From a virus, in IMG/VR virus record IMGVR_UViG_3300033067_001533: DNA of 64,000 nucleotides; one strand, given 5' to 3'. A program made the translations under genes and the position numbers. The notes beneath the pieces are model-generated. The model was not told the DNA's origin, ran no database searches, and saw nothing but the letters and a program-made list of their open reading frames with translations. Position 1 is the stretch's first letter; every line of letters begins with the position of its first letter. This document shows positions 14,194 to 58,038 of the stretch, one piece after another.

Positions 14194-14254
14194 AATAACA
14201 GGTTCCATTTTCCTTTGACTAGTGTGTCTACCAATTTCACCACTCTCCAACAAG

Positions 14255-14345
14255 TTGGGAGGTAGGACTCGAACCTACACGTCTTTCGACACCAGTTTCT
14301 CTTATAGAATTTTAATTGCTGTAAGGAACCTTTAACGATTTAATA
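14255..14345 (-). tRNA. tRNA-like element (canonical T arm GTAGG-TTCGAGT-CCTAC, but no standard 5' acceptor/D arm found); possible pseudogene or atypical tRNA
   Basis: T arm plus 3' CTCCCAAC; upstream part could not be folded into a cloverleaf. Confidence 0.3.
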
Positions 14346-18600: not shown

Positions 18601-19092
18601 TCCATCGAGTTTTCTTGAAACAAACCAAATATCATTATTAAGGTCGACCTTCTTTGCCATTTTCTCATCATAAGAATTTGCCAATGCAACGTCAAATGTT
18701 GGAATCAGTCCAGGAATCACCTTATTAATCATTGAAGTAGTCGATCTGGTTTTAAGGTTTCTATCAATGATATTAAAAATTAACTCCTCATAGTCCTTGT
18801 TTGCCTCTATAAAACCATTAACACAACTAATCGCAAGGTGCCCTGTAATAAATCGATCATTTAAATCATCAAGTAGTGTTGATAAATCTGAATAAGAATA
18901 TTTAACTAAATGTGAATTCTTTTTACAATTTTCTGAAGTAACTCCATATTGTTTAAAAGTATTGTAAGTGTAGTTAAGAGCCTTACATACTGATTCATTA
19001 TCTGCATACTTTTTAAGTATGTTTAATTTGTCAGTGTTTGAATTTGTCTGATTCGACGCATTAACAAAGTCTTGAATGTCTTGTAATTTCAT
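18283..19092 (-). CDS. N-terminal part of ATP-dependent DNA ligase (through KxDG adenylation motif I) fused to N-terminal split-intein fragment (IntN, ~105 aa)
   Basis: ...FVSRKLDG|CLHADTIIEFEDG...: catalytic-lysine motif KLDG followed by Cys1 and CLxxDT (block A); LTGNH (block B); ORF ends ~105 aa after Cys1, the length of known IntN fragments. Confidence 0.75.
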   Translation of the reverse strand: MKLQDIQDFVNASNQTNSNTDKLNILKKYADNESVCKALNYTYNTFKQYGVTSENCKKNSHLVKYSYSDLSTLLDDLNDRFITGHLAISCVNGFIEANKDYEELIFNIIDRNLKTRSTTSMINKVIPGLIPTFDVALANSYDEKMAKKVDLNNDIWFVSRKLDGCLHADTIIEFEDGTKISIKEVVDNKVEGKIKSYNINSNKIEFKTIKNWMVNLDDINENNSEWFEIELENGKKIKLTGNHRVWLPELRCWRRTDELNGDEKLLITI

Positions 19093-20047: not shown

Positions 20048-20728
20048 TTATGCCTTATAACATTGTCTAAGCAACATTACAACATCCATTGCATCTTCAA
20101 CAGCGTTGTGAGTTACAACACCATCGATTCCTGCACGTTTTTTACATTCATCAAGACTTGGAATCGATTCATCATTAATCCAATCAACAAATAGGATTCC
20201 TGGGTCTAATACTCTGCTACGAATTGAAAATACTTGTTTCCATCTAGGTAGTTTTTCTAAGAATTTCTTGTCAAATCCTGCAAAATTCTTACCTGCACAG
20301 TTTAAATAAACCTTTGGCATATTTGAGGTTAGTATTGGATATGGTTTACCGTTTACAATTTTAATTTGTTTATTTAAAAAGTCAGGGTCAACTGGAACCA
20401 ATCCATTATCATAACAAAATTGGAAAAGAGCTTCAACAACCTCATCTTCATGATAGAATTTAGCACCAAAAGATTCCTCAACCTCTTGTTTTAATTCTTC
20501 AGTTCTTGCTTCAGAATAATCCTTTATCGCTTGAATTAAATCCCTATTTAAGTTCAGTGCGAAGATACTTCCGTAAACACTTTCACGTTTAATAACAGCA
20601 TGAAACTTTGGTAACTCTTCAAATGGAAGGGGATTCAAAGTGTCTTCAATTACTGCTCCTATTGAAAGGATTTGATTAAAATCTACATCTAATCCGGTGG
20701 TCTCGACATCGATCGATATATATTTCAT
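20048..20728 (-). CDS. DEDDh 3'-5' exonuclease (oligoribonuclease/RNase T/DnaQ-like)
   Basis: Exo I motif ISIDVETTGLD near N-terminus; Exo III H-x4-D in THNAVEDAMD. Confidence 0.65.
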   Translation of the reverse strand: MKYISIDVETTGLDVDFNQILSIGAVIEDTLNPLPFEELPKFHAVIKRESVYGSIFALNLNRDLIQAIKDYSEARTEELKQEVEESFGAKFYHEDEVVEALFQFCYDNGLVPVDPDFLNKQIKIVNGKPYPILTSNMPKVYLNCAGKNFAGFDKKFLEKLPRWKQVFSIRSRVLDPGILFVDWINDESIPSLDECKKRAGIDGVVTHNAVEDAMDVVMLLRQCYKA

Positions 20729-26088: not shown

Positions 26089-26565
26089 TTAATTTATATT
26101 TTTTAATTCGCTTCTTAATCGACCTATTGCTGCTTCCAATGTATTATAGACTGGAATGTTAAATCTACTACAAACAATATCTACATTTCCTTTACGATAA
26201 AAATCATCTGGGCAACATACAATCATTTTTTCTAGATTTGCATATAATCCAAGTTCTAATAGACTAATTGGACTCTTGGTTTCTGGTGAAAAGTACATGA
26301 AAATTAGGTCAGATTTATCAAGATGGTCTAATTCCCAATTAACTTGATAGTTAAATTCAGGGTTAGATTCCTTTTGTTCCCATGAACTGTCCCAATCATC
26401 TCTACGAGGATTAAAGAAAGTTAAATCGTTGCGATCTTTAAATAGCTGTGGAATCATTGCTTGCCAATCTTCGGCTTTTCCCATTTCGATAGAACCTGCT
26501 AAAAATATTTTAATACTTTTATCAGAATATACTCGGTTTTTTGGTTCTGGTTTAATTACTTCCAT
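26089..26565 (-). CDS. nucleoside 2-deoxyribosyltransferase-like protein
   Basis: KIFLAGSIEMG resembles the (Y/F)LAGP(F/L) N-terminal motif of the NDT/DNPH1 family; directly downstream of NAMPT. Confidence 0.4.
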   Translation of the reverse strand: MEVIKPEPKNRVYSDKSIKIFLAGSIEMGKAEDWQAMIPQLFKDRNDLTFFNPRRDDWDSSWEQKESNPEFNYQVNWELDHLDKSDLIFMYFSPETKSPISLLELGLYANLEKMIVCCPDDFYRKGNVDIVCSRFNIPVYNTLEAAIGRLRSELKNIN

Positions 26566-28031
26566 TATGCTTGCTTTAAACGTTCACGAATTTCAGTTAG
26601 GGTGGTTTGATTTTCAAATTGACCATTTATATAAATTGCCTGCAGTGCTCCTCCTGTTCCATTTTCAATGTCCCATTGCACTTTATCAAAAAGTTTAAAT
26701 GTACCATCTTCCATTTTCTTAACAAATAATAATCCAGTTGCTGATTTTTTAGTTCCATCATCAGTGATTGGATCTTTAAAGATTTCTCTTCCTTCACCGT
26801 TAACTTCTACATAGGTTGCTTTCATTGCAAATCCAAAAGTATCTCTTGTGTTAAATTGATATGTAAAACTTCCAATACCTAATACAACGTTAGTACTTGC
26901 GAAACCTTTGGCTTCTAATCTTCTACAAATCTCATCGGCTCTATCAATTGTGATTGAATCTCCATAGATAGCCCCGATGTGAGAGTCAAGAACTTTATAA
27001 CCTTGTTCGTTGATAGTTCCGCCAAATACATCCCAAAGTAATTCAATAACACCTTTTTCTTCTGGAGTTATAGATTTTCTTAAAGGATGCCATTTAGTAC
27101 CGCAAAGAATATCGACTGGGTCACCGCTATCAGGGCGAATAACCAATTTACCATCACGGGCTAAGATTTCTTCTTTAAGAGTTACAACATGTTCAGTACA
27201 AACTCTCCAAAGATCCCATGTGTCCGAGACTACGCTTAAAATTCCGGTTGGATAGGTATCTAATAATCTTCGGAATGTTTCTATCTCATCTTCTTTACCT
27301 CCAGCACACATTACAGAATGTTCAGTGGCATTGACAGAACCCGCAACAGCACCTTCAGCGCCATAGTACTTTCTTGCACCATAGATTGCTGGTAAACTAT
27401 CGGTTCCCATAAAACTTGTTAAGTGAGCAACCCCTGATGAGATTACAGCATCAACACTATCCATACCTCTCATTGAAAAATCATGTCCTTGCCAATCAAT
27501 AAACCAACCTTTTTCTGCATCTGTTTTTTCTTGCCATTTAGTTAATACCTTACGATATGTATGTGCAATTGTGGCAGAAGTCATTGGTTTCCATAATAGG
27601 TTAGAGATAATAGTCTCCAAGTAATTTGTAATCCAATAAAAATCTGGATGTGTATTGTAAATTGTCAAAACCGGTACCTTAATAGGCACTAAACTACCCT
27701 CTGGAAGTGCCTTAACGACAATTGGTAAATAACCTAAATCGTGTAGAGCTTCAAAGTGACTTACATCATAATCTGAACCTAAGTACATTGACAACTCTGC
27801 TTTCATTTCGCCGCAAACTTCAGCCTTTGGTTTACTAAAAAATTCATTAGCAAATGCTTCGTGAATTTGTTTGATTACCATTTGTTGGCCAAAAGAGACT
27901 AATTGGTCACACCCTTTAGGTGCATACTTGTTACTTCTTGGTGTGAAGTTTGAATAAACTAAAGTTGTTCCTTTAGGATATTGTTGGTGATGGCCACATT
28001 TATAGCCGTCAGTAAGAAATAATGGATTCAT
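26565..28031 (-). CDS. nadV: nicotinamide phosphoribosyltransferase (NAMPT/NadV family; a Namat-like alternative cannot be excluded)
   Basis: 488 aa; N-terminus NPLFLTDGYKCGHHQQYPKGT matches NAMPT N-terminal substrate-binding segment (…TDSYKVTHYKQYPP…). Confidence 0.8.
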   Translation of the reverse strand: MNPLFLTDGYKCGHHQQYPKGTTLVYSNFTPRSNKYAPKGCDQLVSFGQQMVIKQIHEAFANEFFSKPKAEVCGEMKAELSMYLGSDYDVSHFEALHDLGYLPIVVKALPEGSLVPIKVPVLTIYNTHPDFYWITNYLETIISNLLWKPMTSATIAHTYRKVLTKWQEKTDAEKGWFIDWQGHDFSMRGMDSVDAVISSGVAHLTSFMGTDSLPAIYGARKYYGAEGAVAGSVNATEHSVMCAGGKEDEIETFRRLLDTYPTGILSVVSDTWDLWRVCTEHVVTLKEEILARDGKLVIRPDSGDPVDILCGTKWHPLRKSITPEEKGVIELLWDVFGGTINEQGYKVLDSHIGAIYGDSITIDRADEICRRLEAKGFASTNVVLGIGSFTYQFNTRDTFGFAMKATYVEVNGEGREIFKDPITDDGTKKSATGLLFVKKMEDGTFKLFDKVQWDIENGTGGALQAIYINGQFENQTTLTEIRERLKQA

Positions 28032-29066: not shown

Positions 29067-29522
29067 TTACATTTCTACTAATTCATTAACGATCATTTTA
29101 ACTGTTCCGATGTCTGCACGACCTTGATATTTCTTATTAAATTCTCCAATAGTTTTACCAACAAGCGCCTGAGGATTTTTAATAGTTACTGAAAAATCCT
29201 GTAGAATTTCTTTAAGCGCTAGCGTAATTTCTTGCTCACTCATTTGTGCAGGCATATAGTTTCTAAGAACTTGTACTTCTTTAGTTTCTTTAAGCGCTAA
29301 TTCTGGTCTATTTGCCAAATCATACATTTTAATAGATTCCTCGCGCTGCTTGATTGCTTTATTAATGATTTTAATAATTTCTTCGTCAGTTGCAACCCAA
29401 GTTCCATTATTCTTTTCGGCATTCGTGATTGCCGCTTTAATACTATTAAGTGCCATTTTGGCTACTTCATCCTTTGCTTTCATTGCAGTTATAAAATCTG
29501 CGTTTATTTGTTCTCTAATCAT
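29067..29522 (-). CDS. GatB/YqeY-domain protein
   Basis: 151 aa; AMKAKDEVAKMALNSIKAAITNAEK... and C-terminal LALKEILQDF pattern typical of YqeY-like proteins. Confidence 0.55.
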   Translation of the reverse strand: MIREQINADFITAMKAKDEVAKMALNSIKAAITNAEKNNGTWVATDEEIIKIINKAIKQREESIKMYDLANRPELALKETKEVQVLRNYMPAQMSEQEITLALKEILQDFSVTIKNPQALVGKTIGEFNKKYQGRADIGTVKMIVNELVEM

Positions 29523-29764
29523 AATCCTTTTTCTTTTTTAAATATTTCTAATAGTTCTTTTGCTGTAAAGTAATCTCTTTTTATTAAGTGAAAATACTTT
29601 GCTTTTTGGCTTAATATTTTTTGCATTTGAGTACAACTAAGTGCCATCCACTCTGCAAACTCAATAGCGTAATCATCTGCTATTTCAACACAATTTTCTG
29701 CGTTATCTTCTCTGTTTGCATATTGATGGTCACAATAGCCTATAAACTTTTCTTTTAGTGTCAT
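29519..29764 (-). CDS. hypothetical protein
   Basis: ORF track. Confidence 0.35.
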   Translation of the reverse strand: MTLKEKFIGYCDHQYANREDNAENCVEIADDYAIEFAEWMALSCTQMQKILSQKAKYFHLIKRDYFTAKELLEIFKKEKGL

Positions 29765-29768
29765 CTTC

Positions 29769-29975
29769 TTAATTTTTTCTAATTCCGGTTACCATAATAT
29801 ATTTAAACATTCCACTCTTTTTAAAGAAGTGTTGGATAAAAGTTACCTCATATGTTATAAATCCACTATCGCTTTCCATGGTTATGGATTCATCAATTAA
29901 CGGCTTTTCAACTTCACACATGAAATCATGTTCTAAAACACCTTTATTCATTAAAATAAATCTACACTTCGTCAT
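29769..29975 (-). CDS. hypothetical protein
   Basis: ORF track. Confidence 0.35.
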   Translation of the reverse strand: MTKCRFILMNKGVLEHDFMCEVEKPLIDESITMESDSGFITYEVTFIQHFFKKSGMFKYIMVTGIRKN

Positions 29976-31014
29976 CCCATCTTTTTTTAGTAATTACTTT
30001 TCCGTTTTTGTCGTAATATTTTACTTTGCTTTCATCGTATGGTTCAACATCCTTTACGAATACCCATGAGCTTTGTTTTACGTTATGTGTTCCACCACTC
30101 CAGTCTCCATAGATTTCAACTTCGCCTTCTCTAATACCAATTACGGTAAATGGCGCAGCATCTGCTGGAAAATAGACTAAGTCACCTAATTTAGGACTAT
30201 GTGGTACAGTACTTTGTTCAACATCTATATTTCCTTTTGAATTGCTTAATAAGCCAGATAAAAAGAATGGATCCTGTGTAAAGATTGGAGTATGAATTTC
30301 TTGCCATTTGTTTCTGGTAAAAGTTCCATTATCATTTGTTGTTATAACTTCTACTTTGGCAATTACTGCTCCTCTTTTCTTACGAAAATCACAATCATTC
30401 CAATTAATTCCTTTCTGAAAGATCATCTCTTGCATTTGATCAGTTTTAACACCATGGAGTTCTTTAGTACTATAAAGACTTTGAGCAACTGAAGAGATTG
30501 AATTTCTTACAGCATCTTGTTGTCTCCAGATAAAATAGTTTTTAACCTCATCAATAAATGGAATTTGAAATGCTCTAGCGTCGAATTCTGCCATTTTAAA
30601 TGTTTCAATATCATGGTGGAATGAAAAAGAACCATCAGTTCTAGCAATTCTCTTCAACCTAAGTTTATTAAATTCTGCAGTGGCCATAGAAGCTGCAACT
30701 GATACCATTTTCTGTAGGTTATTGTCAAACCATGCATGAGTTCCTAACTCATCAAAGTCTGTTAGGACTAAACTAATCTCATCTGATTGTACATAACCGA
30801 ATTTAGCACCTTGGATGTTTTTACATAGATATGCTGTAGTTGCATTCATGTCTTCAATAAGACCCTCATCAAATGGTCTCTCTAATCCTTTCGTGTAGGT
30901 GTGAAAGGCTTTTCCGTCAATACGGATAATTGTAAATGTTCTCCTTGGGAGTTTGATCCTGGTTCTATCTTCGTAGAACTCTTTCATGCGATCGCCTAAT
31001 GCATCGTTTTTCAT
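29962..31014 (-). CDS. tRNA(His) guanylyltransferase (Thg1)-like protein with ~100-aa C-terminal extension
   Basis: DRMKEFYEDRTRIKLPRRTFTIIRIDGKAFHTYTKGLERPFDEGL...AKFGYVQSDEISLVL matches Thg1 N-terminal catalytic region (…VVRIDG+AFH+F…PFD..…QSDEIS). Confidence 0.75.
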   Translation of the reverse strand: MKNDALGDRMKEFYEDRTRIKLPRRTFTIIRIDGKAFHTYTKGLERPFDEGLIEDMNATTAYLCKNIQGAKFGYVQSDEISLVLTDFDELGTHAWFDNNLQKMVSVAASMATAEFNKLRLKRIARTDGSFSFHHDIETFKMAEFDARAFQIPFIDEVKNYFIWRQQDAVRNSISSVAQSLYSTKELHGVKTDQMQEMIFQKGINWNDCDFRKKRGAVIAKVEVITTNDNGTFTRNKWQEIHTPIFTQDPFFLSGLLSNSKGNIDVEQSTVPHSPKLGDLVYFPADAAPFTVIGIREGEVEIYGDWSGGTHNVKQSSWVFVKDVEPYDESKVKYYDKNGKVITKKRWDDEV

Positions 31015-36362: not shown

Positions 36363-36575
36363 TTATATTAATTTTAAAAATTTTAATTCTTCTACTGCTG
36401 CTTCAAATGCTTCTTGCCATGTTCGATATAAATACCATTCTCTGACCTGAATCAGTTCATAATTTCCAAAGTGTTCATATTTATATATGTCAAATGCAAA
36501 TTTAGGAGCACTTGTTCTATCTAAACCAATTTCTATAACAAAGCCTAATGTGGCTAATGAATCTATAGTGTACAT
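36363..36575 (-). CDS. hypothetical protein
   Basis: ORF track. Confidence 0.35.
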   Translation of the reverse strand: MYTIDSLATLGFVIEIGLDRTSAPKFAFDIYKYEHFGNYELIQVREWYLYRTWQEAFEAAVEELKFLKLI

Positions 36576-37453
36576 TATATTACTTTAAATGCGGTTGTAT
36601 GTGTTTTTTCTTCATATTCATTATCGGCAATATCTCTATAAGAATTTGTAGTGTAAATATGTTCGAAGTTGCGTGATAATTCTTTAAAACCAGCACTAAA
36701 TATTCCATGGGTTACTACCAAATAAATTTTGGCATCTGCTCTCTGTGCTTTGATTGCTTTGGCAAGTTCGTTAAATGTTCTACCGCCATCACAAATATCA
36801 TCAATGATTACATATTGTAAATCATCGCCAACCAATCCTGGTAAGTCTGGAATCTCAGTTTTAAGAATGTTACCAGTTCTCATGTCTCTAACCTTATTTG
36901 CGGTAACGACATTTTGAATTTGAAATTTCTTAGCAACGTCGAAGATTTTTTTGTATGCTCCAGCATCTGGGCTTACTAAGCAAATTCTCTCTTTCGCATC
37001 TTTCTTATTGTCGATTTCTGTAAGTGCGTATTTAACTACGGTGTGATTATCTAATTTCTCGTAGTTATTTAAACATGCCTCTAAGACATCTGAATGAGGA
37101 TCTAATGTAATTACCGTTACAAAATTTAGGGAATTGATAATCGGACAAATTACTTGTTTTAAATAATTAACTCCACCATCAACAAATTTACGGTCTGAAC
37201 GAGCTCCTATAAAATATGGAACGTAAAGAGCAATTTCTCTGTTTGGTTTAATATTTCTGATTGCAGCTGTTGCACAAATGATCAGTTCTAAGTCCTTAAA
37301 ACTATTTAAACGTGAACTGATTTTCACAGCATCATCATATACTACTAAGTCATTCCAATCAATAAGATCTATTGTTTGTTGACCATCTGGAAATTGACTA
37401 ATTTTGTATTTAATCTGTGATTTTTCTAGATTAACCAAGTCTAATGTTATCAT
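36575..37453 (-). CDS. prs: ribose-phosphate pyrophosphokinase (PRPP synthetase) family protein; could alternatively be an ADP-ribose pyrophosphokinase-type homolog
   Basis: VITLDPHSD (DLHS-like), LVSPDAGAYKK, and PRPP-binding loop VIIDDICDGGRTF. Confidence 0.75.
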   Translation of the reverse strand: MITLDLVNLEKSQIKYKISQFPDGQQTIDLIDWNDLVVYDDAVKISSRLNSFKDLELIICATAAIRNIKPNREIALYVPYFIGARSDRKFVDGGVNYLKQVICPIINSLNFVTVITLDPHSDVLEACLNNYEKLDNHTVVKYALTEIDNKKDAKERICLVSPDAGAYKKIFDVAKKFQIQNVVTANKVRDMRTGNILKTEIPDLPGLVGDDLQYVIIDDICDGGRTFNELAKAIKAQRADAKIYLVVTHGIFSAGFKELSRNFEHIYTTNSYRDIADNEYEEKTHTTAFKVI

Positions 37454-44347: not shown

Positions 44348-45082
44348 TTATTGTTTAAAGGTTGGCATTAACCACATTCCATCTTTAAAGATTAATTCTA
44401 AAAATCCTGGAATAATCTCATCAACATCCATCAAGAGTCTAAAACTTCTAACTGTATTAAATCTCATCATCTTGTCAATTTCCTCTCTGATTCTTTGGCC
44501 ACTTACTGTTTGTTCAAGTTTCTTTAAGATGTTTGGTTGTTTCATTGCTTCCCATATATCGTCGCTCATCACAAAATCCTTTGTGATTGTAAATCTTAGG
44601 GCTCTTAGGATGCGTAATGGGTCATCCATCATTGTAACGTTAGCATCCATTGGAGTTCTTAGTACGCCAATCTTTAAATCTTCAATACCACCAAAAAGAT
44701 CGATAATGTTTCCATCGATATCTTCTGCAAGCGCATTTAGGGTAAAGTCTCTGCGTAGTAAATCATCTTCAAGAGTACCTAATTCTAAAATAGGTCGGCG
44801 GGTACCTTCAACGTATCCGACCTCTTTACGGGCCATTACAAAATCTGCAACTAATCCAGTAAACTGGTGGTCCTTTGGAAATTTGGCACGAATTGTAAAA
44901 CAATCTGGAGTACTTAAGAATATCTCAAATCCATTAACTGTCATCCAATCTGTCATGATTTCAAATCCGCTCTCTACTGTCCGATTTAAGTCATCTAACA
45001 CAAATGTGAAATCTATGTCCTTTGAGTCAATGCCAAGGAATTTATCCCTGATGCAACCTCCGACGCGATAGATATGTGGCAT
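44348..45082 (-). CDS. tRNA nucleotidyltransferase (CCA-adding enzyme) / poly(A) polymerase head-domain protein
   Basis: HIYRVGGCIRDKFLGIDSKDIDF matches GGxVRDxLLGxxxxDxD class II nucleotidyltransferase motif. Confidence 0.6.
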   Translation of the reverse strand: MPHIYRVGGCIRDKFLGIDSKDIDFTFVLDDLNRTVESGFEIMTDWMTVNGFEIFLSTPDCFTIRAKFPKDHQFTGLVADFVMARKEVGYVEGTRRPILELGTLEDDLLRRDFTLNALAEDIDGNIIDLFGGIEDLKIGVLRTPMDANVTMMDDPLRILRALRFTITKDFVMSDDIWEAMKQPNILKKLEQTVSGQRIREEIDKMMRFNTVRSFRLLMDVDEIIPGFLELIFKDGMWLMPTFKQ

Positions 45083-52389: not shown

Positions 52390-52461
52390 GGGTGTTACCG
52401 GGGATCGAACCCTGTTCTCCTGATTCACAGTCAAGCGCTTTACCAATAAGCTAGAAACACC
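52390..52461 (-). tRNA. tRNA-His (GTG)
   Basis: Anticodon stem CTTGA/TCAGG loop CTGTGAA; T arm CAGGG-TTCGATC-CCCGG; discriminator C73; one acceptor mismatch, G-1 status ambiguous. Confidence 0.55.
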
Positions 52462-52820
52462 ATATTGAGAGGTTTAGGTATGGCTCACCTCTCCATGACT
52501 GACATCCTACCTTTACAGTCTAATTTGTACCGACTAGTGGTAACGATCCACTCTGAAAATACTTATGAGATATTTTCGATCACCTGATCAAGTCGGCAAT
52601 TAAGTACCTTGCGTTAGATTTGTCTGTTAAGAGTCGAACTTAACATACCAAAAGACAACGTTACAAATATAAAATGGCCATTCTACAATGTATGTTGGTG
52701 CACCAATTCTCTAACGCTTTATCAGTACTTAGTGGAAAGCAGAAGTCTCGATCTCCATGCCCTAAGGCACGATTCGCTTAGCAAGCGGTCCTGAATCCTA
52801 TTCAGTTTACTTTCCAATTG

Positions 52821-52894
52821 TAGTCAATGGAGGACTCGAACCTCCGACCCTCGCAGTATCAGTGCGATGCTCTAACCAACTGAGCTAATTGACT
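52821..52894 (-). tRNA. tRNA-Ile (GAT)
   Basis: Perfect cloverleaf: AGTCAAT-TA-GCTCAGTTGGTTAGAGC-A-TCGCA-CTGATAC-TGCGA-GGGTC-GGAGGTTCGAGTCCTCC-ATTGACT-A. Confidence 0.8.
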
Positions 52895-53070
52895 ATGTAA
52901 GAGAGACTTTGGGTCTTTCAGGGTTACTGGTTAAATGCAATAAGTGAGCCCTTCCTACTATTAACCCTTTTTCGGAAATTAATACACTCTACCTTTTAAC
53001 TACAGCTTAACTATCTCTCTCATGCGTTCTATCAAAAATGGAAGTTGTTGCGCCTATACCATATATTTGA

Positions 53071-53115
53071 AAGATGGTAGGATTCGAACCTACGTGACCA
53101 CCATTGTCTCATCTT
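53071..53115 (-). tRNA. 45-nt mini tRNA-like element (acceptor-like stem + 3-bp/7-nt hairpin + canonical T arm)
   Basis: AAGATG-A-GACAATGGTGGTC-AC-GTAGGTTCGAATCCTAC-CATCTT. Confidence 0.3.
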
Positions 53116-53121
53116 CCACAG

Positions 53122-53197
53122 TACCTCCAGTGGGAGTCGAACCCACAAAATCTTCTGATCCTAAGTCAGACGGCTTTTCCAGTTTGCCCATGGAGGC
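53122..53197 (-). tRNA. tRNA with anticodon TAG (Leu-CUA reading) but short variable loop
   Basis: Acceptor GCCTCCA/TGGAGGT, anticodon stem TCTGA/TCAGA loop CTTAGGA, T arm GTGGG-TTCGACT-CCCAC; 7-nt variable region atypical for Leu. Confidence 0.4.
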
Positions 53198-53290
53198 ATA
53201 AAGCCAATCCCGTAGATTGGCCGCTCAACTTAAGGTATTGAGTTTGCAAGAATAAATCTTTGACCAGGTCATGCGTCCTATGGGCGCCGA

Positions 53291-53366
53291 CTAGTACCTC
53301 GTAGTAGAATCGAACTACTGCCATTTCCATGTAAAAGAAATACGCTTCCATTACGCCAACGAGGCT
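53291..53366 (-). tRNA. atypical tRNA-like element (canonical acceptor and T arm, no foldable D stem; anticodon loop could read TAC or TTA depending on register)
   Basis: GCCTCGT...AGTAG-TTCGATT-CTACT-ACGAGGT; internal ATTTCTTTTACATGGAAAT ambiguous. Confidence 0.3.
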
Positions 53367-53936
53367 GGTCGACTCCGATTTTTATGTGCACCATACAGAA
53401 CGTTGTCGAAGTAAACTGTGTTTGTACCCCTTGTAGGTAATGCTCCTACTTCCCGATATTAAAAGTATCGTGCTTCACTTTAAAGCCTAAGGGGCTTGCC
53501 TTTTTTAGAGTTTTTGATAGAACAATAGAACCCAAGGACAGAACTACCTATAAAACTATTTGTAATTAAGAGTGTAAAAGGAACGTTTTGCCTAAGACCG
53601 CGGATCCATACAAAACTTAACTTTACCAAAATGTTGATTTGCAACTCATCATTTTGTCAGGTTACTACATATACAGAACCTTTTACTGCTTCTAATAATT
53701 CGCAAGGACAATACAGGATTCGAACCTGTAACTCCGGATCCGTTCCGGTGTTATGTGTCCAACTACACCAATCGCCCAAACTACTTATTTTCCGCTTTTC
53801 TCTTTGTGACTGTAAGGGGACTCGAACCTTAATGATTACTCCAGCGCTACTTTCATCATTTTTAAATTAACCTAGCCTAAAAGGCACCCAGCTTACCGGT
53901 GGGCTGTGCTTCCCTGCACAAGTACAATCGTTTTAG

Positions 53937-54010
53937 TAGCGGGTGGCAGAATCGAACTACCCTTCATTCGGCTTATGAGACCGATAAGTTCACCAGAACT
54001 TTAACCCGCA
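53937..54010 (-). tRNA. tRNA-Met/Ile2 (CAT) copy 1
   Basis: Anticodon stem TCGGT/GCCGA loop CTCATAA; T arm GGTAG-TTCGATT-CTGCC. Confidence 0.55.
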
Positions 54011-54020
54011 ATATATTTTG

Positions 54021-54092
54021 TAGTCAATATAGGACTCGAACCCATACCACTAGAGTCGAAATCTAGCATTCTATCCATTAAACTAATCGACT
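54021..54092 (-). tRNA. tRNA-Arg (TCG)
   Basis: Acceptor AGTCGAT/ATTGACT, anticodon stem CTAGA/TCTAG loop TTTCGAC, T arm ATGGG-TTCGAGT-CCTAT. Confidence 0.65.
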
Positions 54093-54155
54093 AATGCATC
54101 CCGTTACTCGTGCACGAGCCATGGCATTACGGGATCGATGTTTTTCCATATTCTG

Positions 54156-54229
54156 TGGACCAGGCTGGCCTCGAACCAGCGACCTACTGATTATGAGTCA
54201 GGCGCTCTAACCAACTGAGCTACAGGTCC
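54156..54229 (-). tRNA. tRNA-Met/Ile2 (CAT) copy 2
   Basis: Canonical D arm GCTCAGTTGGTTAGAGC, anticodon loop CTCATAA, T arm GCTGG-TTCGAGG-CCAGC. Confidence 0.7.
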
Positions 54230-54430
54230 AATTAAATAATAAACCGTTCCAGACCGAACTATTAGGAACTATTAGGGCTTCTCGGACGAGGTGCACAACC
54301 CACAAAACGGCTATGATATGTTATCTGTTACTTGGCTTCTACCTCTGATTAGAATTATTATACGGGCCTCGAACCCACCTAATTAATGTATGCCTACATT
54401 AACTTTCACAGTATATCAGTTTATTATTTG

Positions 54431-54501
54431 CACAAGTAGAAGGGGTCGAACCTCCATCGTCGGTTTTGGAGACCGGTATGCTACCATTGCACCATACTTG
54501 T
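54431..54501 (-). tRNA. tRNA-Trp (CCA)
   Basis: Acceptor ACAAGTA/TACTTGT, anticodon loop CTCCAAA, T arm GGAGG-TTCGACC-CCTTC. Confidence 0.55.
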
Positions 54502-54506
54502 AATTG

Positions 54507-54587
54507 TGGGACCTGGTGGACTCGAACCACTCCCAAAAGGACGAGATTTACAGTCTCGCTGCCGTATCCGAACGACTTTCAGTTCCC
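54507..54587 (-). tRNA. tRNA-Tyr (GTA), type II
   Basis: Anticodon stem CGAGA/TCTCG loop CTGTAAA, long variable arm, T arm (A)GTGG-TTCGAGT-CCAC(C). Confidence 0.55.
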
Positions 54588-54719
54588 GATTAATTTATTC
54601 TATTCCACATGACCGGACTTTATCAGGATGTGCTTTTTACCTTACAGGATTTGAACCTGTGTCCTTTCGGCTCCCGCCGAATGTTCTTACCAACTACAAC
54701 TAAAGGTTGAATAAATTTG

Positions 54720-54791
54720 CTGGCCCGGAAGGAATCGAACCTTCATAAGATGATTAACAGTCATCCGTAATAACCCTTATACGACAGGCCA
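54720..54791 (-). tRNA. tRNA-Asn (GTT)
   Basis: Acceptor TGGCCTG/CGGGCCA, D stem CGTA/TACG, anticodon stem GATGA/TCATC loop CTGTTAA, T arm GAAGG-TTCGATT-CCTTC. Confidence 0.7.
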
Positions 54792-54949
54792 ATTTACCTC
54801 ATGTGAGGTCACTTATCATTCTATAATACTACTCATAGAAACTAGATTGAGTATCTGCTGATTAAAATGGATTCGAACCATAATCCTGAGTCCCATTTCC
54901 GCGTTAATACCACGTACTCCGTTCCTCTGTGCGCCTTTACACCATAATC

Positions 54950-55008
54950 AATCGTCAGTTTCGAACCTGACAGTTCTAAGTTAATTACTCTTAGAATTTG
55001 TTGCGATT
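54950..55008 (-). tRNA. ~59-nt armless tRNA-like element (T arm GTCAG-TTCGAAA-CTGAC plus one hairpin CTAAG-AGTAATTAA-CTTAG)
   Basis: Hand fold; no D arm and no standard acceptor partner. Confidence 0.25.
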
Positions 55009-55085
55009 AGAGGAATTGAACCTCTAGAGGGTATATCTACCGATACGGCTCATGAGACCGTCTCTGACCACTATCGCAATATAGT
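55005..55085 (-). tRNA. atypical tRNA-like element with CAT anticodon loop (ACGGT-CTCATGA-GCCGT), truncated D region and long variable region; T arm AGAGG-TTCAATT-CCTCT
   Basis: Hand fold. Confidence 0.3.
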
Positions 55086-55816
55086 GTCTTTACATGGGAT
55101 TCGAACCCATACTCTTCCGGGCTTATATGCCGGCGTTCCAAACCACGTTAAACTACGTAAAGCAATCAATTAAAATTACAGAAATTAGTGACGTCAAATC
55201 TCTTTAAGCTATGTGTAATTTTAATCGTTAGGAAGATATTGCTGATCAGGCATCTTCTTTGTAATTATGATTGGATTCGAACCAATTCCAGCTTTACAAT
55301 AAAGAGTATATTTCAACTCAACCTTTGTGAGGTGCCGCCAACAAATGGCCTCATAATCATTTGGAGCAGAGATAGGATTCGAACCTATAACCTAATCCGG
55401 TCGTGTACCGGTTGCACGTCCACTTGTGCTTCAAAGCTCATGTATTTGCGAAGTGAAGGGATTCGAACCCTTTGTCTGTGGCTCCACGACTTTAACCAGA
55501 CCACTTCAAGAGCTGCAGCTCTGTTATACTTAGTGCATTAACCTCATATGCTATTCCCTGTGGCTAGGAAATGTGAGTCTCGATCCGACATTCTCTAAGT
55601 ACCTAATTACATTCGATCCTTTAAAGAGGGACGTATTGCTAGGCAAAACTCTATTGTTGTCAGGACAGGATTCGAACCTGTAAGGATATAACACTTCTTG
55701 CTGTGTTTTCTCCGGCAGTTTCCGTCCGTGAGCAAGAGATTGAGAAGTTCACTCTCAACCAATCATATTGGACTAGACCCCCGTGTATACCAATTGCACC
55801 ACCTGACTAATTTGAT

Positions 55817-55902
55817 GTTGTGGCAGGACTCGAACCTGCATCTCTCTACGCTGGATAAATCCATCTTGAACGTTTGCGACATACCTTTTAATCCACACAA
55901 CA
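55817..55902 (-). tRNA. type-II-like tRNA candidate (isotype undetermined); T arm GCAGG-TTCGAGT-CCTGC, acceptor TGTTGTG/CACAACA
   Basis: Acceptor and T arm clear; anticodon arm not resolved by hand. Confidence 0.3.
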
Positions 55903-55907
55903 AATTG

Positions 55908-55979
55908 TAGCGCCACGGGGAATCGAACCCCGCTTTCTAGGATGAAAACCTAACGTCCTAACCGATAGACGATGGCGCC
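55908..55979 (-). tRNA. tRNA-Glu (TTC)
   Basis: Acceptor GGCGCCA/TGGCGCT, anticodon stem TTAGG/CCTAG loop TTTTCAT, T arm CGGGG-TTCGATT-CCCCG. Confidence 0.65.
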
Positions 55980-56011
55980 ATTTTATTACCAATATGTCAA
56001 ATAACGTTTGT

Positions 56012-56088
56012 TTTAATTATAGTGTAAATATAATTATAATATTTGAACCGTGAAAATTTAAAGTGTTAAAACTTTGTTAAAATTTTTG
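56012..56088 (-). promoter_or_regulatory. conserved promoter element inside tRNA cluster (part of a ~110-nt duplicated unit)
   Basis: ttatagtgtaaatataattataatatttgaaccgtgaaaatttaaagtgttaaaactttgttaaaattt. Confidence 0.5.
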
Positions 56089-56160
56089 AGCGACTAGACA
56101 GGATCGAACTGTCATTTTCAGATTGGAAGTCTGAAGTAATGGCCATTATACGATAGTCGC
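56089..56160 (-). tRNA. tRNA-Gly (TCC)
   Basis: Perfect acceptor GCGACTA/TAGTCGC, anticodon stem TCAGA/TCTGA loop CTTCCAA, T arm GACAG-TTCGATC-CTGTC. Confidence 0.75.
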
Positions 56161-56391
56161 ATTTGGGTAGGACAGAGGCCTTCTGCCTACCGAGACCTCG
56201 TCGTTGAATTGCTTCAGAGCGTACCGAGACACTTTTTAAAAAATAACAGGATGGATTAATACGTGCTCTACCAACTGAGCTACTCCGAACGTGCCACTTA
56301 AGGCGGTGTTCAAAGGCCGGATTCGAACCGACGACCACGAGGTTAACAGCCTAAGTTTTATTATTTGCGGTAACCATCCTTTATATTTTTG

Positions 56392-56464
56392 AGCCTCTTG
56401 TCGGGCTCGAACCAACGACCTGATCATTACAAATGATCTGCTCTACCAACTGAGCTAAAGAGGC
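56392..56464 (-). tRNA. tRNA-Thr (TGT)
   Basis: Acceptor GCCTCTT/AAGAGGC, D arm GCTCAGTTGGTAGAGC, anticodon stem GATCA/TGATC loop TTTGTAA, T arm GTTGG-TTCGAGC-CCGAC. Confidence 0.75.
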
Positions 56465-56524
56465 AAATTGTCGACTTTCTTGGTAGCGGCACCTTTACAC
56501 GGCCGTCGACTCTACTTGTGGTGG

Positions 56525-56600
56525 TCTGGTAGGCAGGATTCGAACCTGCGTGCTCTAGCGTCCAAGGCCAGCGAGATAAACCGGGCTCCTCTACTACCAG
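56525..56600 (-). tRNA. tRNA-Pro (TGG)
   Basis: Acceptor CTGGTAG/CTACCAG, anticodon stem CTGGC/GCTAG loop CTTGGAC, T arm GCAGG-TTCGAAT-CCTGC; enlarged D loop. Confidence 0.55.
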
Positions 56601-56654
56601 TGGTGAAGGGATTATTTTTTTATAGTAGAATTCGCCCATCTCAAAACTACTTTG

Positions 56655-56726
56655 TTACCCGACCAGGACTCGAACCTGGACGAACAGAATCAAAATCTGT
56701 GATGCTAGCCATTACATCATCGGGCA
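56655..56726 (-). tRNA. tRNA-Gln (TTG)
   Basis: D stem GATG/CATC, anticodon stem ACAGA/TCTGT loop TTTTGAT, T arm CCAGG-TTCGAGT-CCTGG. Confidence 0.7.
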
Positions 56727-56734
56727 AATTATTG

Positions 56735-56807
56735 TGGACCCTGTAGGAATCGAACCTACTCCTCTAGTTCTTCAGACTAGCGTACGCACCAGCTATACCA
56801 AAGGTCC
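56735..56807 (-). tRNA. tRNA-Phe (GAA)
   Basis: Acceptor GGACCTT/AGGGTCC, anticodon stem CTAGT/ACTAG loop CTGAAGA, T arm GTAGG-TTCGATT-CCTAC. Confidence 0.7.
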
Positions 56808-56837
56808 ATTTTTATTATCAACATGTCAAATAACGTT

Positions 56838-56918
56838 TGTTCTAAATTGTTATACAAATATAACTATAACGTTTGAACCATGAAAACTTTAAGTGTTAAA
56901 TTTATGTTAAAATTTTCT
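56838..56918 (-). promoter_or_regulatory. conserved promoter element inside tRNA cluster (second copy of the ~110-nt unit)
   Basis: ttgttatacaaatataactataacgtttgaaccatgaaaactttaagtgttaaatttatgttaaaatttt. Confidence 0.5.
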
Positions 56919-56922
56919 TTTG

Positions 56923-56993
56923 AATTCAGTATTGGAATCGAACCAATCTCTCGGAGTTTGCAATCCCGCGCCTAACCACTCGGCCAACTGAAC
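56923..56993 (-). tRNA. tRNA-Cys (GCA)
   Basis: D arm GCCGAGTGGTTAGGC, anticodon loop TTGCAAA, T arm ATTGG-TTCGATT-CCAAT. Confidence 0.5.
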
Positions 56994-57002
56994 ATTTAAA
57001 AT

Positions 57003-57040
57003 CAAAAAAGGACCAATCATTTCTGAGAGGTCCTTTTGAA
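57003..57040. terminator. bidirectional rho-independent terminator between DUF4326 gene and tRNA-Cys
   Basis: AAAAAAGGACC-[14 nt]-GGTCCTTTTGAA: hairpin flanked by A-run and T-run. Confidence 0.45.
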
Positions 57041-57296
57041 TATTATATATGTTAATAGTGCTTAGCTCATACTAACATTTCTTTTTTCAAAAAGACCAAA
57101 CCCCTGTTCCCAATTATAAAAGGGACATATCGTGCCAACCATCCCTAGGGTCGGTTGATTAAAATTAATATGTTTTTGAGTTGTTTGCATTTTTATTATT
57201 TTATTCTTTATAAACAAGAGTATTAATGTTCTTGTGTATATTATATATGTATATATCTTTATGTTTCAGCAAATTTGCACTTTTTTTAAATTATTT

Positions 57297-57590
57297 TTAA
57301 AAAAGTTCATTACCATGTGTCTTTAATAACTTTATGATAATATCGCCATGACATGGACCGGGCTTGCACCAACATCCGAGCGTCTTACCCTTTAGCTCAT
57401 GTAAACTTTCCATCAGTTTACTATTTGCCAATAAATATTTTTCGTATGCTTCAATTGCCTCCTTTACAGTGTTTACTTTAAATTGGGCAAGCGTGCCAGG
57501 TTTATGTGAATATGGATTGCCCCACTTTGATGGTCTGCCGATATACGCATCATAAGGTTCTTTATTTACATGTACAACCTTCATATACAT
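57297..57590 (-). CDS. DUF4326-like protein
   Basis: VHVNKEPYDAYIGRPSKWGNPY...LGCWCKPGPCHGDII matches the GNPF...CWCxPxxCHGD pattern of that family. Confidence 0.45.
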   Translation of the reverse strand: MYMKVVHVNKEPYDAYIGRPSKWGNPYSHKPGTLAQFKVNTVKEAIEAYEKYLLANSKLMESLHELKGKTLGCWCKPGPCHGDIIIKLLKTHGNELF

Positions 57591-57601
57591 TTTTTAATTA
57601 G

Positions 57602-57675
57602 TGACTCGGGAAGGATTCAAACCTTCGACCTACACATTAGAAGTGTGTTGCTCTATTCAGCTGAGCTACCGAGCC
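57602..57675 (-). tRNA. tRNA-Arg (TCT)
   Basis: Acceptor GGCTCGG/CCGAGTC, D arm GCTCAGCTGAATAGAGC, anticodon stem ACACA/TGTGT loop CTTCTAA, T arm GAAGG-TTTGAAT-CCTTC. Confidence 0.7.
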
Positions 57676-57684
57676 TGTTGTTAA

Positions 57685-58038
57685 TTATATATTAACTTCT
57701 ATTTTTGTTTCAAGAGATTTAATGTGTTTGCAATGTCCTCTTCTAAATGAAGATGCTGGACAATTACAATTCCATTGGCCTCTCTTATATGTAACTAAAT
57801 ATTCTGACTTTCCGTTTGATGAAGGTACCCTAAATTCAAGTTCCTTTTGAGATGTTTTAGGTGTCTCTGTGGATACTATCTCGGATTCAATTATTATATC
57901 ATCCGAAAATTCTATATCCTCTCGGGTTGTTCCCTCATCCACATGGATCCATCCTGGACAGACATATAAACCAGTAAGAGTTCTTACTAATGCAAAGTCC
58001 TTGAATACACTATCTCTGGGTATTTTATATTTAGTCAT
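57685..58038 (-). CDS. SWIM-type zinc-finger protein
   Basis: C-terminal CNCPASSFRRGHCKHI (CxCx(n)CxH). Confidence 0.45.
   Translation of the reverse strand: MTKYKIPRDSVFKDFALVRTLTGLYVCPGWIHVDEGTTREDIEFSDDIIIESEIVSTETPKTSQKELEFRVPSSNGKSEYLVTYKRGQWNCNCPASSFRRGHCKHIKSLETKIEVNI

Follow-up and report, generated by a model that had tools for sequence, protein, structure and literature searches.

Described here is a 5.3-kilobase (kb) array of transfer RNA (tRNA) genes and tRNA-like elements from the virus record IMGVR_UViG_3300033067_001533. The DNA analyzed, hereafter the window, is a stretch of 64,000 nucleotides (nt) of that record, and all positions are given in its numbering. On balance we favor the view, with reasonable though far from full confidence, that the array is a tRNA operon in which genuine tRNAs are interleaved, in register, with tRNA-derived RNAs that are maintained by selection and do not decode. 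The extra elements are nonrandom and conserved, their stems covary, their anticodon loops are often lost or hypervariable, they share trailers and spacing with the tRNAs, and the phage carries genes for tRNA maturation. Every tRNA-type feature within the limits below lies on the minus strand.

52390-57675, minus strand: the whole array, in which tRNAs and tRNA mimics occur together with structured spacers and a single small protein gene

That this region holds a dense tRNA cluster, as had been put forward in a preliminary description, was confirmed with two programs. ARAGORN in its default mode lists 20 tRNA genes in the array, and the Rfam tRNA model (RF00005) gives 19 matches at its gathering score plus one in E-value mode. 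Sixteen standard genes score 52-73 bits with Rfam, and with tRNA-Tyr, which is called by ARAGORN only, the number of solid standard tRNAs is thus 17. The second claim, namely that extra T-arm elements are interleaved too regularly for chance, also held. For this purpose a strict T-arm motif was defined by five of five stem pairs, closure by a G-C pair, and the loop TTCRANN. It occurs 33 times in the window, always inside the array or a cluster at 13.8-14.3 kb, and 13 of the 33 copies (12 of them in the array) lie outside the ARAGORN calls and are referred to as orphans. A control set of 833 kb of tRNA-free phage loci, searched on both strands, yielded eight strict motifs, which corresponds to ~0.05 expected in 5.3 kb. 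The excess is thus far beyond chance, and the observation is real.

The source is an uncultured jumbo phage. Phage-like genes of the window include those for a tail fiber, an HNH endonuclease, and a sigma factor. No near match was found in 50,697 cultured-phage records, and a sensitive DNA search returned only generic tRNA similarity at a coverage of at most 5%. Searches with the flanking tail fiber and with the DUF4326 protein encoded within the array retrieved related viral and metagenomic contigs, up to 256 kb in length, that carry syntenic tRNA arrays. In ~12 distinct genomes these arrays have blocks in common with that of the window, in shuffled order. The related loci named below are L001, L003, L006, L009, L010, and L012.

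57297-57590, minus strand: gene for the DUF4326 protein, inside the array (Pfam E=2e-24)

This gene occupies the same array position in the relatives, and phosphate processing on ADP-ribose derivatives has been proposed for its domain (PMC9503650). Families of elements were defined by clustering the sequence context around every orphan T arm in the compared loci. They are present in 6-24 of these loci, many of which overlap on the same contigs, and are confined to this phage clade. Indeed, the pattern of element C1 (see below) occurs in 10 viral contigs and was not found in 185,579 species genomes, none of the bacterial genomes being matched.

Beside the 17 standard tRNAs the array holds ~20 conserved RNAs of tRNA shape, most of them devoid of an anticodon loop. 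These elements are designated by letters and were assigned to three classes. Class 2, the mimics without an anticodon (~10), comprises B, C1, C2, C3, D, G, H, L, and M, and probably F, I, and K. These are listed below together with a sequence block abutting C1 and the isolated T arm N.

55658-55807, minus strand: B, a 150-nt tRNA-Leu-derived mimic in which the acceptor, D arm, and T arm are kept
55509-55528, minus strand: an invariant block of 20 nt, TATAACAGAGCTGCAGCTCT, that contains the palindrome AGAGCTGCAGCTCT and directly adjoins the 5' end of C1
55449-55507, minus strand: C1, a 59-nt mimic with a 6-base-pair (bp) acceptor, the invariant GGTCTGGTTAAAGT, a 17-nt hairpin, and a T arm
55363-55440, minus strand: C2, a mimic with a canonical D arm and a 4-bp hairpin bearing a hypervariable 7-8-nt loop without U33
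55262-55358, minus strand: C3, a 97-nt mimic with a 7-bp acceptor, a D arm, two internal hairpins, and a T arm
55086-55164, minus strand: D, named Tyr-ATA by ARAGORN, a four-armed cloverleaf (Rfam 32.3 bits)
54953-54997, minus strand: F, two hairpins, one of 7 bp with a 9-nt loop and the other a T-like stem with the 8-nt loop GTTCGAAA
54858-54950, minus strand: G, a mimic with acceptor, D arm, T arm, and a long irregular central hairpin
54638-54707, minus strand: H, a cloverleaf with a 6-bp hairpin as anticodon arm, capped by the GNRA tetraloop GGGA (Rfam tRNA 35.5 bits)
54356-54418, minus strand: I, with a T arm, a hairpin of 8-10 bp closed by the loop GGCA, and an acceptor that is short and weak
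53810-53877, minus strand: K, a conserved module with a hairpin of 5-6 bp, ATGAT/ATCAT, and a T-like arm whose loop has 8 nt in the window
53705-53777, minus strand: L, a tRNA-Arg-derived cloverleaf in which a variable 5-8-nt loop replaces the anticodon loop (Rfam 38.1 bits)
53069-53117, minus strand: M, a 49-nt minihelix composed of an 8-bp acceptor, a small D-like hairpin (GAC/GTC) whose loop contains GG, and a T arm
52620-52658, minus strand: N, a T arm standing alone, TTAAG TTCGACT CTTAA, enclosed by an outer stem of 6 bp; a weak singleton

Class 2 elements keep the upper half of a tRNA, namely the acceptor stem, the T arm, and usually a D loop containing GG. The anticodon arm is either missing, closed by a loop of 3-6 nt or a tetraloop, or exchanged for a fast-evolving hairpin or insert. 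The loops at this position are 3-10 nt long, lack U33, and differ between close relatives, and M has no such arm. The anticodon loops of the canonical tRNAs in the families are near-invariant (Y-U33-NNN-R), with U33 always present. On the basis of sequence matches, B derives from a tRNA-Leu, L from a tRNA-Arg, and the class 1 element Q (see below) from a tRNA-Ser: the 5' part of B is ~90% identical to the Leu-TAG genes of relatives, and the 3' half of L is 86% identical to Arg-ACG genes. An insert of ~90 nt replaces the anticodon and variable region of B and is entirely different in the closest relative, L001, in which the ends are alike. The element previously placed at 55655-55740 is B, which in fact reaches 55807.

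In C1 (nine unique homologues), the 17-nt hairpin, with its variable loop of 3-4 nt, stands where the anticodon arm would be. Of the cells in the stems of its alignment, 98% are paired and six pairs have changed on both sides, a result reached in 0 of 500 shuffles; controls in which the structure was slid along the sequence are 27-49% paired. A different C1 structure suggested by RNAalifold (GTCTG/CAGAC) was rejected, as it is broken by two sequences and an alternative hairpin compensates at the same columns. The adjoining 20-nt block is invariant in every family member, occurs in just 10 IMG/VR contigs, and could be a processing site or a protein-binding site. The C2 stem covaries from CCGG/CCGG to CTGG/CCAG, and its four sequences have four loops (TACACGA, TAAAAGG, TAATAGG, and CAATGTGG). 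Ten distinct sequences are available for C3, whose cluster of 12 had included two unrelated ones. They display 90-99% identity, versus 67-68% for the adjacent DUF4326 protein in the same phages, and one compensatory change in the D stem (GCCA/TGGC to TCCA/TGGA). The would-be anticodon loop of D measures 6-10 nt, has no U33, and is different in every relative, so that ARAGORN names the orthologues Tyr-ATA, Gln-CTG, Gly-ACC, or Leu-TAG; four pairs of this element are compensatory. In G (eight distinct sequences), the central hairpin is hypervariable with insertions and deletions of up to 30 nt, and yet 97% of the cells are paired and seven pairs have changed on both sides (0 of 500 shuffles). 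The T-region pairing given for G by RNAalifold was discarded because the canonical T stem covaries instead.

Compensatory pairs number five in the hairpin of I (seven unique homologues) and four in M (six), the latter having neither an anticodon arm nor a variable region. The four unique homologues of L differ in their loops. Both stems of F covary on direct reading (fold z=-2.1), but there is no conserved acceptor stem, in contrast to the acceptor-like stem attributed earlier to 54950-55008. K has 10 unique homologues, a weak consensus fold, and no convincing cloverleaf. For H, no homologue was found.

When elements were scored as tRNAs (at least 29 bits with Rfam, or an ARAGORN call), the 17 standard genes were recovered along with D, L, H, and the class 1 elements J and O, the last by ARAGORN only. 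Those falling below were B, C1, C2, C3, F, G, I, K, M, N, Q, and the tRNA-Lys of class 1. The tools thus restore a full standard tRNA for only one of the loci previously regarded as atypical, that at 53291-53366, which is simply tRNA-Val(TAC) (58 bits, both programs). For 53705-53777 (38 bits), 54636-54709 (35.5), and 55087-55162 (32), which correspond to L, H, and D, Rfam finds cloverleaves, so that the shape is not atypical; the loops are abnormal, as stated. The rest were not recovered. Several readings of individual elements were likewise rejected. A tRNA-Ser or tRNA-Lys hidden within C3 or B is not supported, as there is no 5-bp stem with a Y-U-NNN-R loop. B and G do not behave as intron-containing tRNAs given that their inserts of 20-90 nt are not of group I size and no anticodon stem-loop flanks them. 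We dismissed as noise the Rfam matches to Plastid-ycf2, skipping-rope, mascRNA, and Dicty class I, which coincide with genuine tRNAs, with the antisense strand of tRNAs, or with tRNA-like elements.

One might suppose that the elements are functionless remnants, namely tRNA pseudogenes in decay and debris of recombination produced as genes of the array were rapidly gained, lost, and shuffled. The array is in fact a mosaic, with the same modules in different order in the relatives; B, L, and Q visibly come from Leu, Arg, and Ser tRNAs; H, N, and the center of B are singletons; and for one upstream T arm the window copy is off consensus relative to L001. Decay should not, however, leave an anticodon-less architecture common to whole families, which places the loss of the anticodon before their divergence, with stems kept paired ever since by compensatory changes. 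Stem cells are 97-100% paired, and unpaired segments such as GGTCTGGTTAAAGT in C1 are invariant. C3 is far better conserved than the protein beside it, and the CAA trailer signal described below is kept in the orphans. The recurrence in ~12 related contigs, the compensatory changes, and the shared trailers and spacing thus argue for maintained RNAs, and pseudogene decay is an improbable explanation for the set as a whole.

The loops bear on a second proposal, made in the preliminary description, that the elements are decoys soaking up host anticodon nucleases such as PrrC, PARIS AriB, retron PtuAB, or those of the colicin type. Phage tRNAs have been described as shaped by tRNA-targeting defenses (PMC10264068). 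This phage has RNA-repair-type genes and many tRNAs, and L keeps part of an Arg-ACG anticodon arm. A decoy for such nucleases must present the targeted anticodon loop, however, and that loop is deleted in M, reduced to 3-6 nt in C1, H, and L, and variable between close relatives in D, C2, and G. No element copies a canonical tRNA anticodon loop while missing other features. Since the part that such nucleases read is missing or unconstrained in the mimics, a role of this kind is disfavored and must be judged very doubtful.

More difficult to separate from our interpretation is the possibility that the tRNA body serves as a scaffold, providing protection from nucleases and processing by RNase P and the enzymes of the 3' end, and that the displayed hairpin or insert (B, G, D, and C2) is the functional part, acting by base pairing or protein binding on host-specific targets. 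The inserts of G and B lie exactly at the position of the anticodon arm. The insert of G keeps a covarying stem while its sequence and length change quickly, most of its seven covarying pairs being in the central hairpin, and the center of B is fully different in L001. Engineered tRNA scaffolds, such as those that Ponchon and Dardel worked with in 2007, reportedly function by displaying cargo, and the tRNA-miRNA transcripts of the herpesvirus MHV68 use tRNA-like handles. On the other hand, no cargo is present in M, C1, and H, which have just tetraloops or nothing, and the interior of C3 shows strong conservation instead of variability. No complementarity to a target was identified, and the loops are too short for a meaningful search. 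We consider this explanation unlikely.

Two further elements, which make up class 3, resemble the YrlA RNAs in being circularly permuted.

56247-56381, minus strand: A, a 135-nt YrlA-like circularly permuted tRNA mimic (Rfam YrlA 34.5 bits, E=4e-6)
14199-14333, minus strand: P, a second 135-nt YrlA-like permuted mimic, identified by direct reading and adjoining the tRNA cluster at 13791-14193

RNAs of the YrlA type occur in bacteria and phages next to Ro60 genes, and that of M. smegmatis is cut by RNase P and receives CCA (PMC4201824). Element A is formed, in order, by a basal stem (AGGATGG/CCATCCT), a small hairpin with loop CTGTTAA, a 3-bp helix (CGT/ACG), a T arm, a closed acceptor-like stem, and a D arm, such that the T arm lies upstream of the D arm. 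The D arm, TAGCTCAGTTGGTAGAGCA, is invariant, and the acceptor-like stem is closed by a variable loop; the sequence of this stem differs in each relative while its pairing is kept. Among seven unique homologues, 99% of the cells are paired, with one compensatory pair in the basal stem and one in the 3-bp junction helix (14 of 500 shuffles). The alignment of A to the YrlA model (RF02553) by cmscan covers the T arm, the closed acceptor stem, and the D arm, and relatives score 44.1 and 43.5 bits with the same model (44 bits, E=6e-9). P contains a basal stem (GGTTCC/GGAACC) that covaries among three homologues, an GTCGAAAG motif that fits the GNCGAAN0-1G motif described for YrlA, a T arm, a closed acceptor, and a D arm. 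It gave no match to the Rfam YrlA model. The order of parts in A and P, with the basal stem contributed by both ends, is that of YrlA, and the YrlA consensus D arm is matched by GUAGCUCAGUUGGUAGAGC. Unlike YrlA, A and P sit in tRNA arrays rather than beside a Ro60 gene, and they possess an additional anticodon-like hairpin and a long 5' single-stranded segment.

Class 1 differs in that the decoding end is intact. Its five members have invariant, canonical anticodon loops, three with CAU, one with UUU, and one with GCU.

55000-55079, minus strand: E, a non-canonical tRNA(CAU) with the invariant loop CTCATGA, a long variable arm, and a reduced D arm
53937-54010, minus strand: J, a non-canonical tRNA(CAU) (Rfam tRNA 32.2 bits, tRNA-Sec 36 bits; fold z=-3.0)
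53425-53495, minus strand: a hidden non-canonical tRNA-Lys(UUU), found by ARAGORN -mt and -ps90 and missed by default ARAGORN and Rfam
52734-52815, minus strand: Q, tRNA-Ser(GCU)-like, a class II cloverleaf that aligns with Ser tRNAs (fold z=-3.4)
52528-52598, minus strand: O, a non-canonical tRNA(CAU), called Met by ARAGORN with no Rfam match (fold z=-3.7)

What is remodeled in these genes is the elbow, with D loops as short as 3-4 nt, T loops without the T-Psi-C consensus, or both. The anticodon stem of E covaries (two compensatory pairs), an Rfam match of the tRNA-Sec-like kind scores 19.8 bits, and the L001 orthologue is called Met by ARAGORN. J, called Met by ARAGORN -mt, combines the loop CTCATAA with a tRNA-Sec-like D arm (6-bp stem, 4-nt loop), a canonical T arm, and a T:T mismatch at 1:72, and is 97-100% identical in relatives. 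Clustering of orphan T arms places 11 distinct sequences in the E/J family. In O the acceptor has 8 bp, the D stem 4 bp with a loop of 3-4 nt (AGGT in the window), and the anticodon stem 8 bp with loop CTCATAA, while the T loop is ATCGTTA; three of the six compensatory pairs of this element are in the T stem.

The tRNA-Lys came to light in a scan for canonical anticodon stem-loops outside known genes. Its CGATA-CTTTTAA-TATCG lies within a perfect cloverleaf that has a 6-bp D stem with the 3-nt loop AAG, the T loop AGCATTA, and the trailer A-CAAAC. One orthologue group (L003) is available and differs by one change, which preserves the pairing. The window contains no further Lys gene, whereas most sister phages have a canonical Lys-TTT. 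Likewise, Q is the sole Ser(GCU) gene in the window and was not detected by ARAGORN (default or -mt) or Rfam. Its acceptor is GGAAAGT, its 6-bp D stem carries the 3-nt loop AGG, its T loop is ATCGAGA, and CGC-TTGCTAA-GCG is invariant. The long variable arm and the T-like stem covary (three compensatory pairs), and the identity in five other distinct relative sequences is 86-92%. O, Q, and tRNA-Lys thus have in common a shrunken D loop, no G18G19, a T loop without the T-Psi-C consensus, and a canonical anticodon arm. J (an Rfam cloverleaf at 53939-54009), A, tRNA-Lys, and Q had been absent from the list of array elements in the preliminary description.

From these sequences class 1 elements most likely represent working tRNAs with an unusual elbow. 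The earlier suggestion of minimalist tRNAs fits E, J, O, tRNA-Lys, and Q; it does not fit the majority, in which the loop is of 3-6 nt, hypervariable at 6-10 nt, replaced by an insert, or absent. That every atypical element is a genuine minimalist tRNA, charged and decoding like the armless mitochondrial tRNAs, is scarcely credible, even though the mitochondrial or relaxed mode of ARAGORN calls several of them and class 1 has the invariant loops just described. In class 2 the would-be anticodon changes from one orthologue to the next, and M has nothing with which to read a codon.

The flanks of the elements are those of tRNA genes. The triplet immediately following the discriminator base is CAA in 54% of the canonical units and 35% of the orphan units (49% if a one-base shift is allowed), against a background of 2.2%. 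CCA is encoded in 9% of canonical genes and in none of the orphan units. Spacers between units are 4-9 nt for canonical and orphan units alike. The acceptor is stacked on the T arm, as in substrates for tRNA maturation, and leaders and trailers are like those of the neighboring tRNAs. An acceptor of 6-8 bp is combined with a 5-bp T arm in B, C1, C3, D, E, G, J, L, M, and O, the T stem of G counting four pairs; the acceptor of C2 has only 4-5 bp, and that of H has 6 bp with a bulge. The earlier proposal of processing signals agrees with the CAA trailers and the spacing, but it leaves unexplained a dozen distinct families with 90-99% identity in unpaired regions.

Just upstream of the first tRNA of the array is a promoter-like site, and two window genes encode enzymes of the kind expected to act on tRNA ends.

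57684-57713, minus strand: promoter-like site TTGAAA-18-TATAAT, 11 of 12 consensus matches (a consensus match only)
44348-45082, minus strand: nucleotidyltransferase of the CCA-adding/poly(A) polymerase head family (Pfam PolyA_pol E=1.5e-18)
29962-31014, minus strand: Thg1-like 3'-5' tRNA nucleotidyltransferase (Pfam Thg1 E=1.9e-29)

Phage homologues of the Thg1-like protein are annotated as tRNA-His guanylyltransferase, and its identity to proteins of Bacillus phages is at most 52%. The trailers, spacing, promoter-like sites, and toolkit genes considered together are most economically explained by co-transcription of the units and their maturation through the tRNA pathway.

A ~108-nt block with promoter-like hexamers was observed twice on the minus strand, at 56807-56916 upstream of tRNA-Phe and at 55979-56086 upstream of tRNA-Glu. 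In relatives there are more copies inside and outside the arrays, including six places in L010.

A plausible pathway can be outlined. The array would be transcribed from promoters at its start and within it, RNase P would cleave at the 5' end of each acceptor, the short N73-CAA(A/T) trailers would be trimmed, and the phage enzyme of the CCA-adding type would complete the 3' ends. The product would be a set of stable small RNAs, those of the mimics being unable to read codons. The half retained in class 2 is the part read by RNase P, the 3'-end processing enzymes, and the CCA-adding enzyme. That the decoding end is lost while the acceptor/T-arm stack and elbow are kept argues against both anticodon-nuclease decoys and cryptic decoders. 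Judging from the parts preserved, the mimics probably bind proteins that recognize the tRNA body, and they could serve as Y-RNA-like cofactors or as regulators of RNA repair or decay. Alternatively, they might divert host factors that recognize the acceptor and elbow of tRNA, as competitors or decoys, or the variable central hairpins might be cargo displayed on a tRNA scaffold. Two options therefore remain, protein-binding tRNA mimics or tRNA scaffolds showing fast-evolving hairpins.

Several points weigh against a tRNA operon with maintained, non-decoding mimics. Expression, processing, and function of the mimics have all been deduced from sequence. Each family contains 4-11 distinct sequences from ~12 closely related contigs, such that the covariation counts are small and the shuffle control could be beaten by phylogeny alone. 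The singletons noted above could be decaying copies, as may K. F, I, K, and N have no convincing acceptor stem. The five class 1 genes could also be non-functional; tRNA-Lys is backed by just one orthologue group, and the anticodon stem of Q has only three clear pairs if its loop is read as 7 nt. The YrlA-like elements lie below the Rfam gathering score of 69 (34.5 bits in the window), and no Ro60/TROVE domain was found in the window open reading frames (ORFs) of at least 150 amino acids or in the four shorter flanking ORFs scanned.

A bolder extension, which we offer tentatively and regard as less probable than not by a wide measure, is that classes 1 and 2 together with the Y-RNA-like elements represent a two-part RNA counter-measure of jumbo phages against tRNA-directed immunity. 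The remodeled tRNA-Lys(UUU), tRNA-Ser(GCU), and tRNA(CAU) would still decode and would escape host tRNA nucleases. The anticodon-less and Y-RNA-like mimics would titrate away or misdirect host proteins by which the tRNA body is sensed or cut, or would guide phage repair enzymes. If this were so, they would constitute a class of phage non-coding RNAs not described before.

That tRNA enzymes release RNAs which have the shape of a tRNA but do not decode is in general an established idea, as exemplified by YrlA, mascRNA, and tRNA-like herpesvirus transcripts. The mascRNA of MALAT1 and the TMERs of MHV68 are tRNA-shaped, are released by tRNA-processing enzymes, and do not decode. They belong to another domain of life and have no homology to the elements described here; the Rfam mascRNA match (20.7 bits) falls on the genuine tRNA-Glu and is noise. 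In bacteriophage T4, the tRNA cluster yields two stable non-tRNA RNAs, species 1 and 2 (rnaC/rnaD), whose function is unknown and which mature from the same precursors as the tRNAs. T4 thus has two such RNAs, versus ~15 here, which fall into distinct families and are clearly tRNA-like in anatomy. M (49 nt) and C1 (59 nt) are like minihelices and the tRNA-like domain of transfer-messenger RNA (tmRNA) in that the acceptor is placed on the T arm with a small D-like loop. Unlike tmRNA, they are stand-alone units with no mRNA-like domain or tag frame and no conserved G3:U70. ARAGORN found no tmRNA in the window, and the Rfam tmRNA match on M scores 11 bits against a threshold of 47.

The D stem of J (6 bp with a 4-nt loop) is like that of tRNA-Sec, and O with its 8-bp acceptor likewise recalls naturally non-canonical tRNAs such as tRNA-Sec and the allo-tRNAs (PMC5389517). 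The anticodons here are CAU, UUU, and GCU, however, and not UCA. O, Q, and tRNA-Lys are also similar to mitochondrial tRNAs without D/T-loop contacts (PMC7609411), being likewise devoid of G18G19 and T-Psi-C, but class 1 is encoded by a phage of bacteria, and phage are not mentioned in that review. Like T5, whose tRNAs are altered such that they escape tRNA-targeting defenses (PMC10264068), the present phage has a near-complete set of tRNAs, and some of these, notably Lys, deviate from the host-like consensus. The T5 changes are reported to be point mutations of the anticodon loop. In the present genes that loop is canonical and it is the elbow, with its D and T loops, that is remodeled, escape being only a hypothesis. 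No report was found in the searchable literature of multiple conserved families of anticodon-less tRNA mimics in phage arrays, or of phage tRNAs with remodeled elbows.

The arrays of more distant huge phages, represented by the 430-kb viral contigs L009 and L012, also contain orphan T-arm elements, which are 60-124 nt long and have abnormal centers. Examples are the T arms at L012:10119-10135 and L009:2074-2090. Orphan T-arm elements may be widespread in very large phages. Such arrays are usually annotated as tRNA lists with spacers or pseudo-tRNAs in between. In the present array almost one unit in two is a conserved structured RNA that is overlooked or misnamed by the standard tools. For large phages, tRNA counts and arguments from codon usage may err in both directions. 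If stable, the mimics would amount to a set of non-coding RNAs of tRNA shape, rich in families, with possible roles in the phage-defense conflict over tRNAs or in surveillance of the Y-RNA type. If the odd Lys, Ser, and CAU tRNAs work, bacterial translation can use tRNAs without a canonical elbow, and a route of nuclease escape other than anticodon-loop mutation would be suggested.

The 17 standard tRNAs of the array, together with one doubtful call, are as follows.

57601-57675, minus strand: tRNA-Arg(TCT), ARAGORN; Rfam 66.7 bits
56922-56993, minus strand: tRNA-Cys(GCA), ARAGORN; Rfam 52.1 bits
56734-56807, minus strand: tRNA-Phe(GAA), ARAGORN; Rfam 61.7 bits
56654-56726, minus strand: tRNA-Gln(TTG), ARAGORN; Rfam 53.9 bits
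56522-56600, minus strand: tRNA-Pro(TGG), ARAGORN; Rfam 54.1 bits; 100% identical in L006
56391-56464, minus strand: tRNA-Thr(TGT), ARAGORN; Rfam 67.3 bits
56088-56160, minus strand: tRNA-Gly(TCC), ARAGORN; Rfam 60.9 bits
55907-55979, minus strand: tRNA-Glu(TTC), ARAGORN; Rfam 56.8 bits
55815-55902, minus strand: doubtful tRNA-Leu(CAA), ARAGORN only; acceptor and T arm good, D and anticodon stems poor
54719-54791, minus strand: tRNA-Asn(GTT), ARAGORN; Rfam 58.6 bits
54506-54587, minus strand: tRNA-Tyr(GTA), class II, ARAGORN only; no Rfam match
54430-54501, minus strand: tRNA-Trp(CCA), ARAGORN; Rfam 60.1 bits
54155-54229, minus strand: tRNA(CAT), standard cloverleaf of the Met or Ile2 type, ARAGORN; Rfam 66.3 bits
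54020-54092, minus strand: tRNA-Arg(TCG), ARAGORN; Rfam 63.2 bits
53294-53365, minus strand: tRNA-Val(TAC), ARAGORN; Rfam 58.1 bits
53121-53197, minus strand: tRNA-Leu(TAG), ARAGORN; Rfam 57.1 bits
52820-52894, minus strand: tRNA-Ile(GAT), ARAGORN; Rfam 73.2 bits
52390-52461, minus strand: tRNA-His(GTG), ARAGORN; Rfam 52 bits

The loop of tRNA-Tyr(GTA), CTGTAAA, is present in 11 of 12 family genes. The gene called Leu-CAA has no Rfam tRNA match at E<=10 and no orthologue, matches elsewhere being limited to its T-arm end, and may be a decaying copy. The 5' end of tRNA-His is ambiguous, as the gene begins at 52461 according to ARAGORN and at 52460 according to Rfam. An encoded G-1 facing C73 may therefore be present in the form of the G at 52461, a point of relevance to the role of the Thg1-like enzyme. 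On the minus strand at 53198-53293, directly before tRNA-Leu(TAG), is a structured spacer with 86-98% identity in six other distinct relative sequences (fold z=-2.1). It contains covarying hairpins and ends in a terminal stem-loop followed by TTTAT. A small tRNA cluster for Ala, Leu-TAA, Ser-TGA, and Asp lies at 13791-14193 on the minus strand.

Elsewhere in the window, also on the minus strand, the tRNA maturation and repair toolkit extends over 2114-2686, 20048-20728, 29067-31014, and 44348-45082. It comprises an HAD domain of the "Swiss army knife" RNA-repair proteins, an RNase T-like exonuclease, and YqeY, in addition to the two nucleotidyltransferases described above. A set of genes of the NAD-salvage type (26089-28031 and 36575-37453, minus strand) encodes nucleoside 2-deoxyribosyltransferase-like, NAPRTase/NAMPT, and phosphoribosyl-transferase/synthetase-like proteins and is reminiscent of phage pathways that rebuild NAD after defense-induced depletion. 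Finally, an ATP-dependent ligase at 16352-19092 (minus strand) is apparently interrupted by an intein, with Intein/Hint matches in 16352-17266 and 18283-19092 and an ORF between them.

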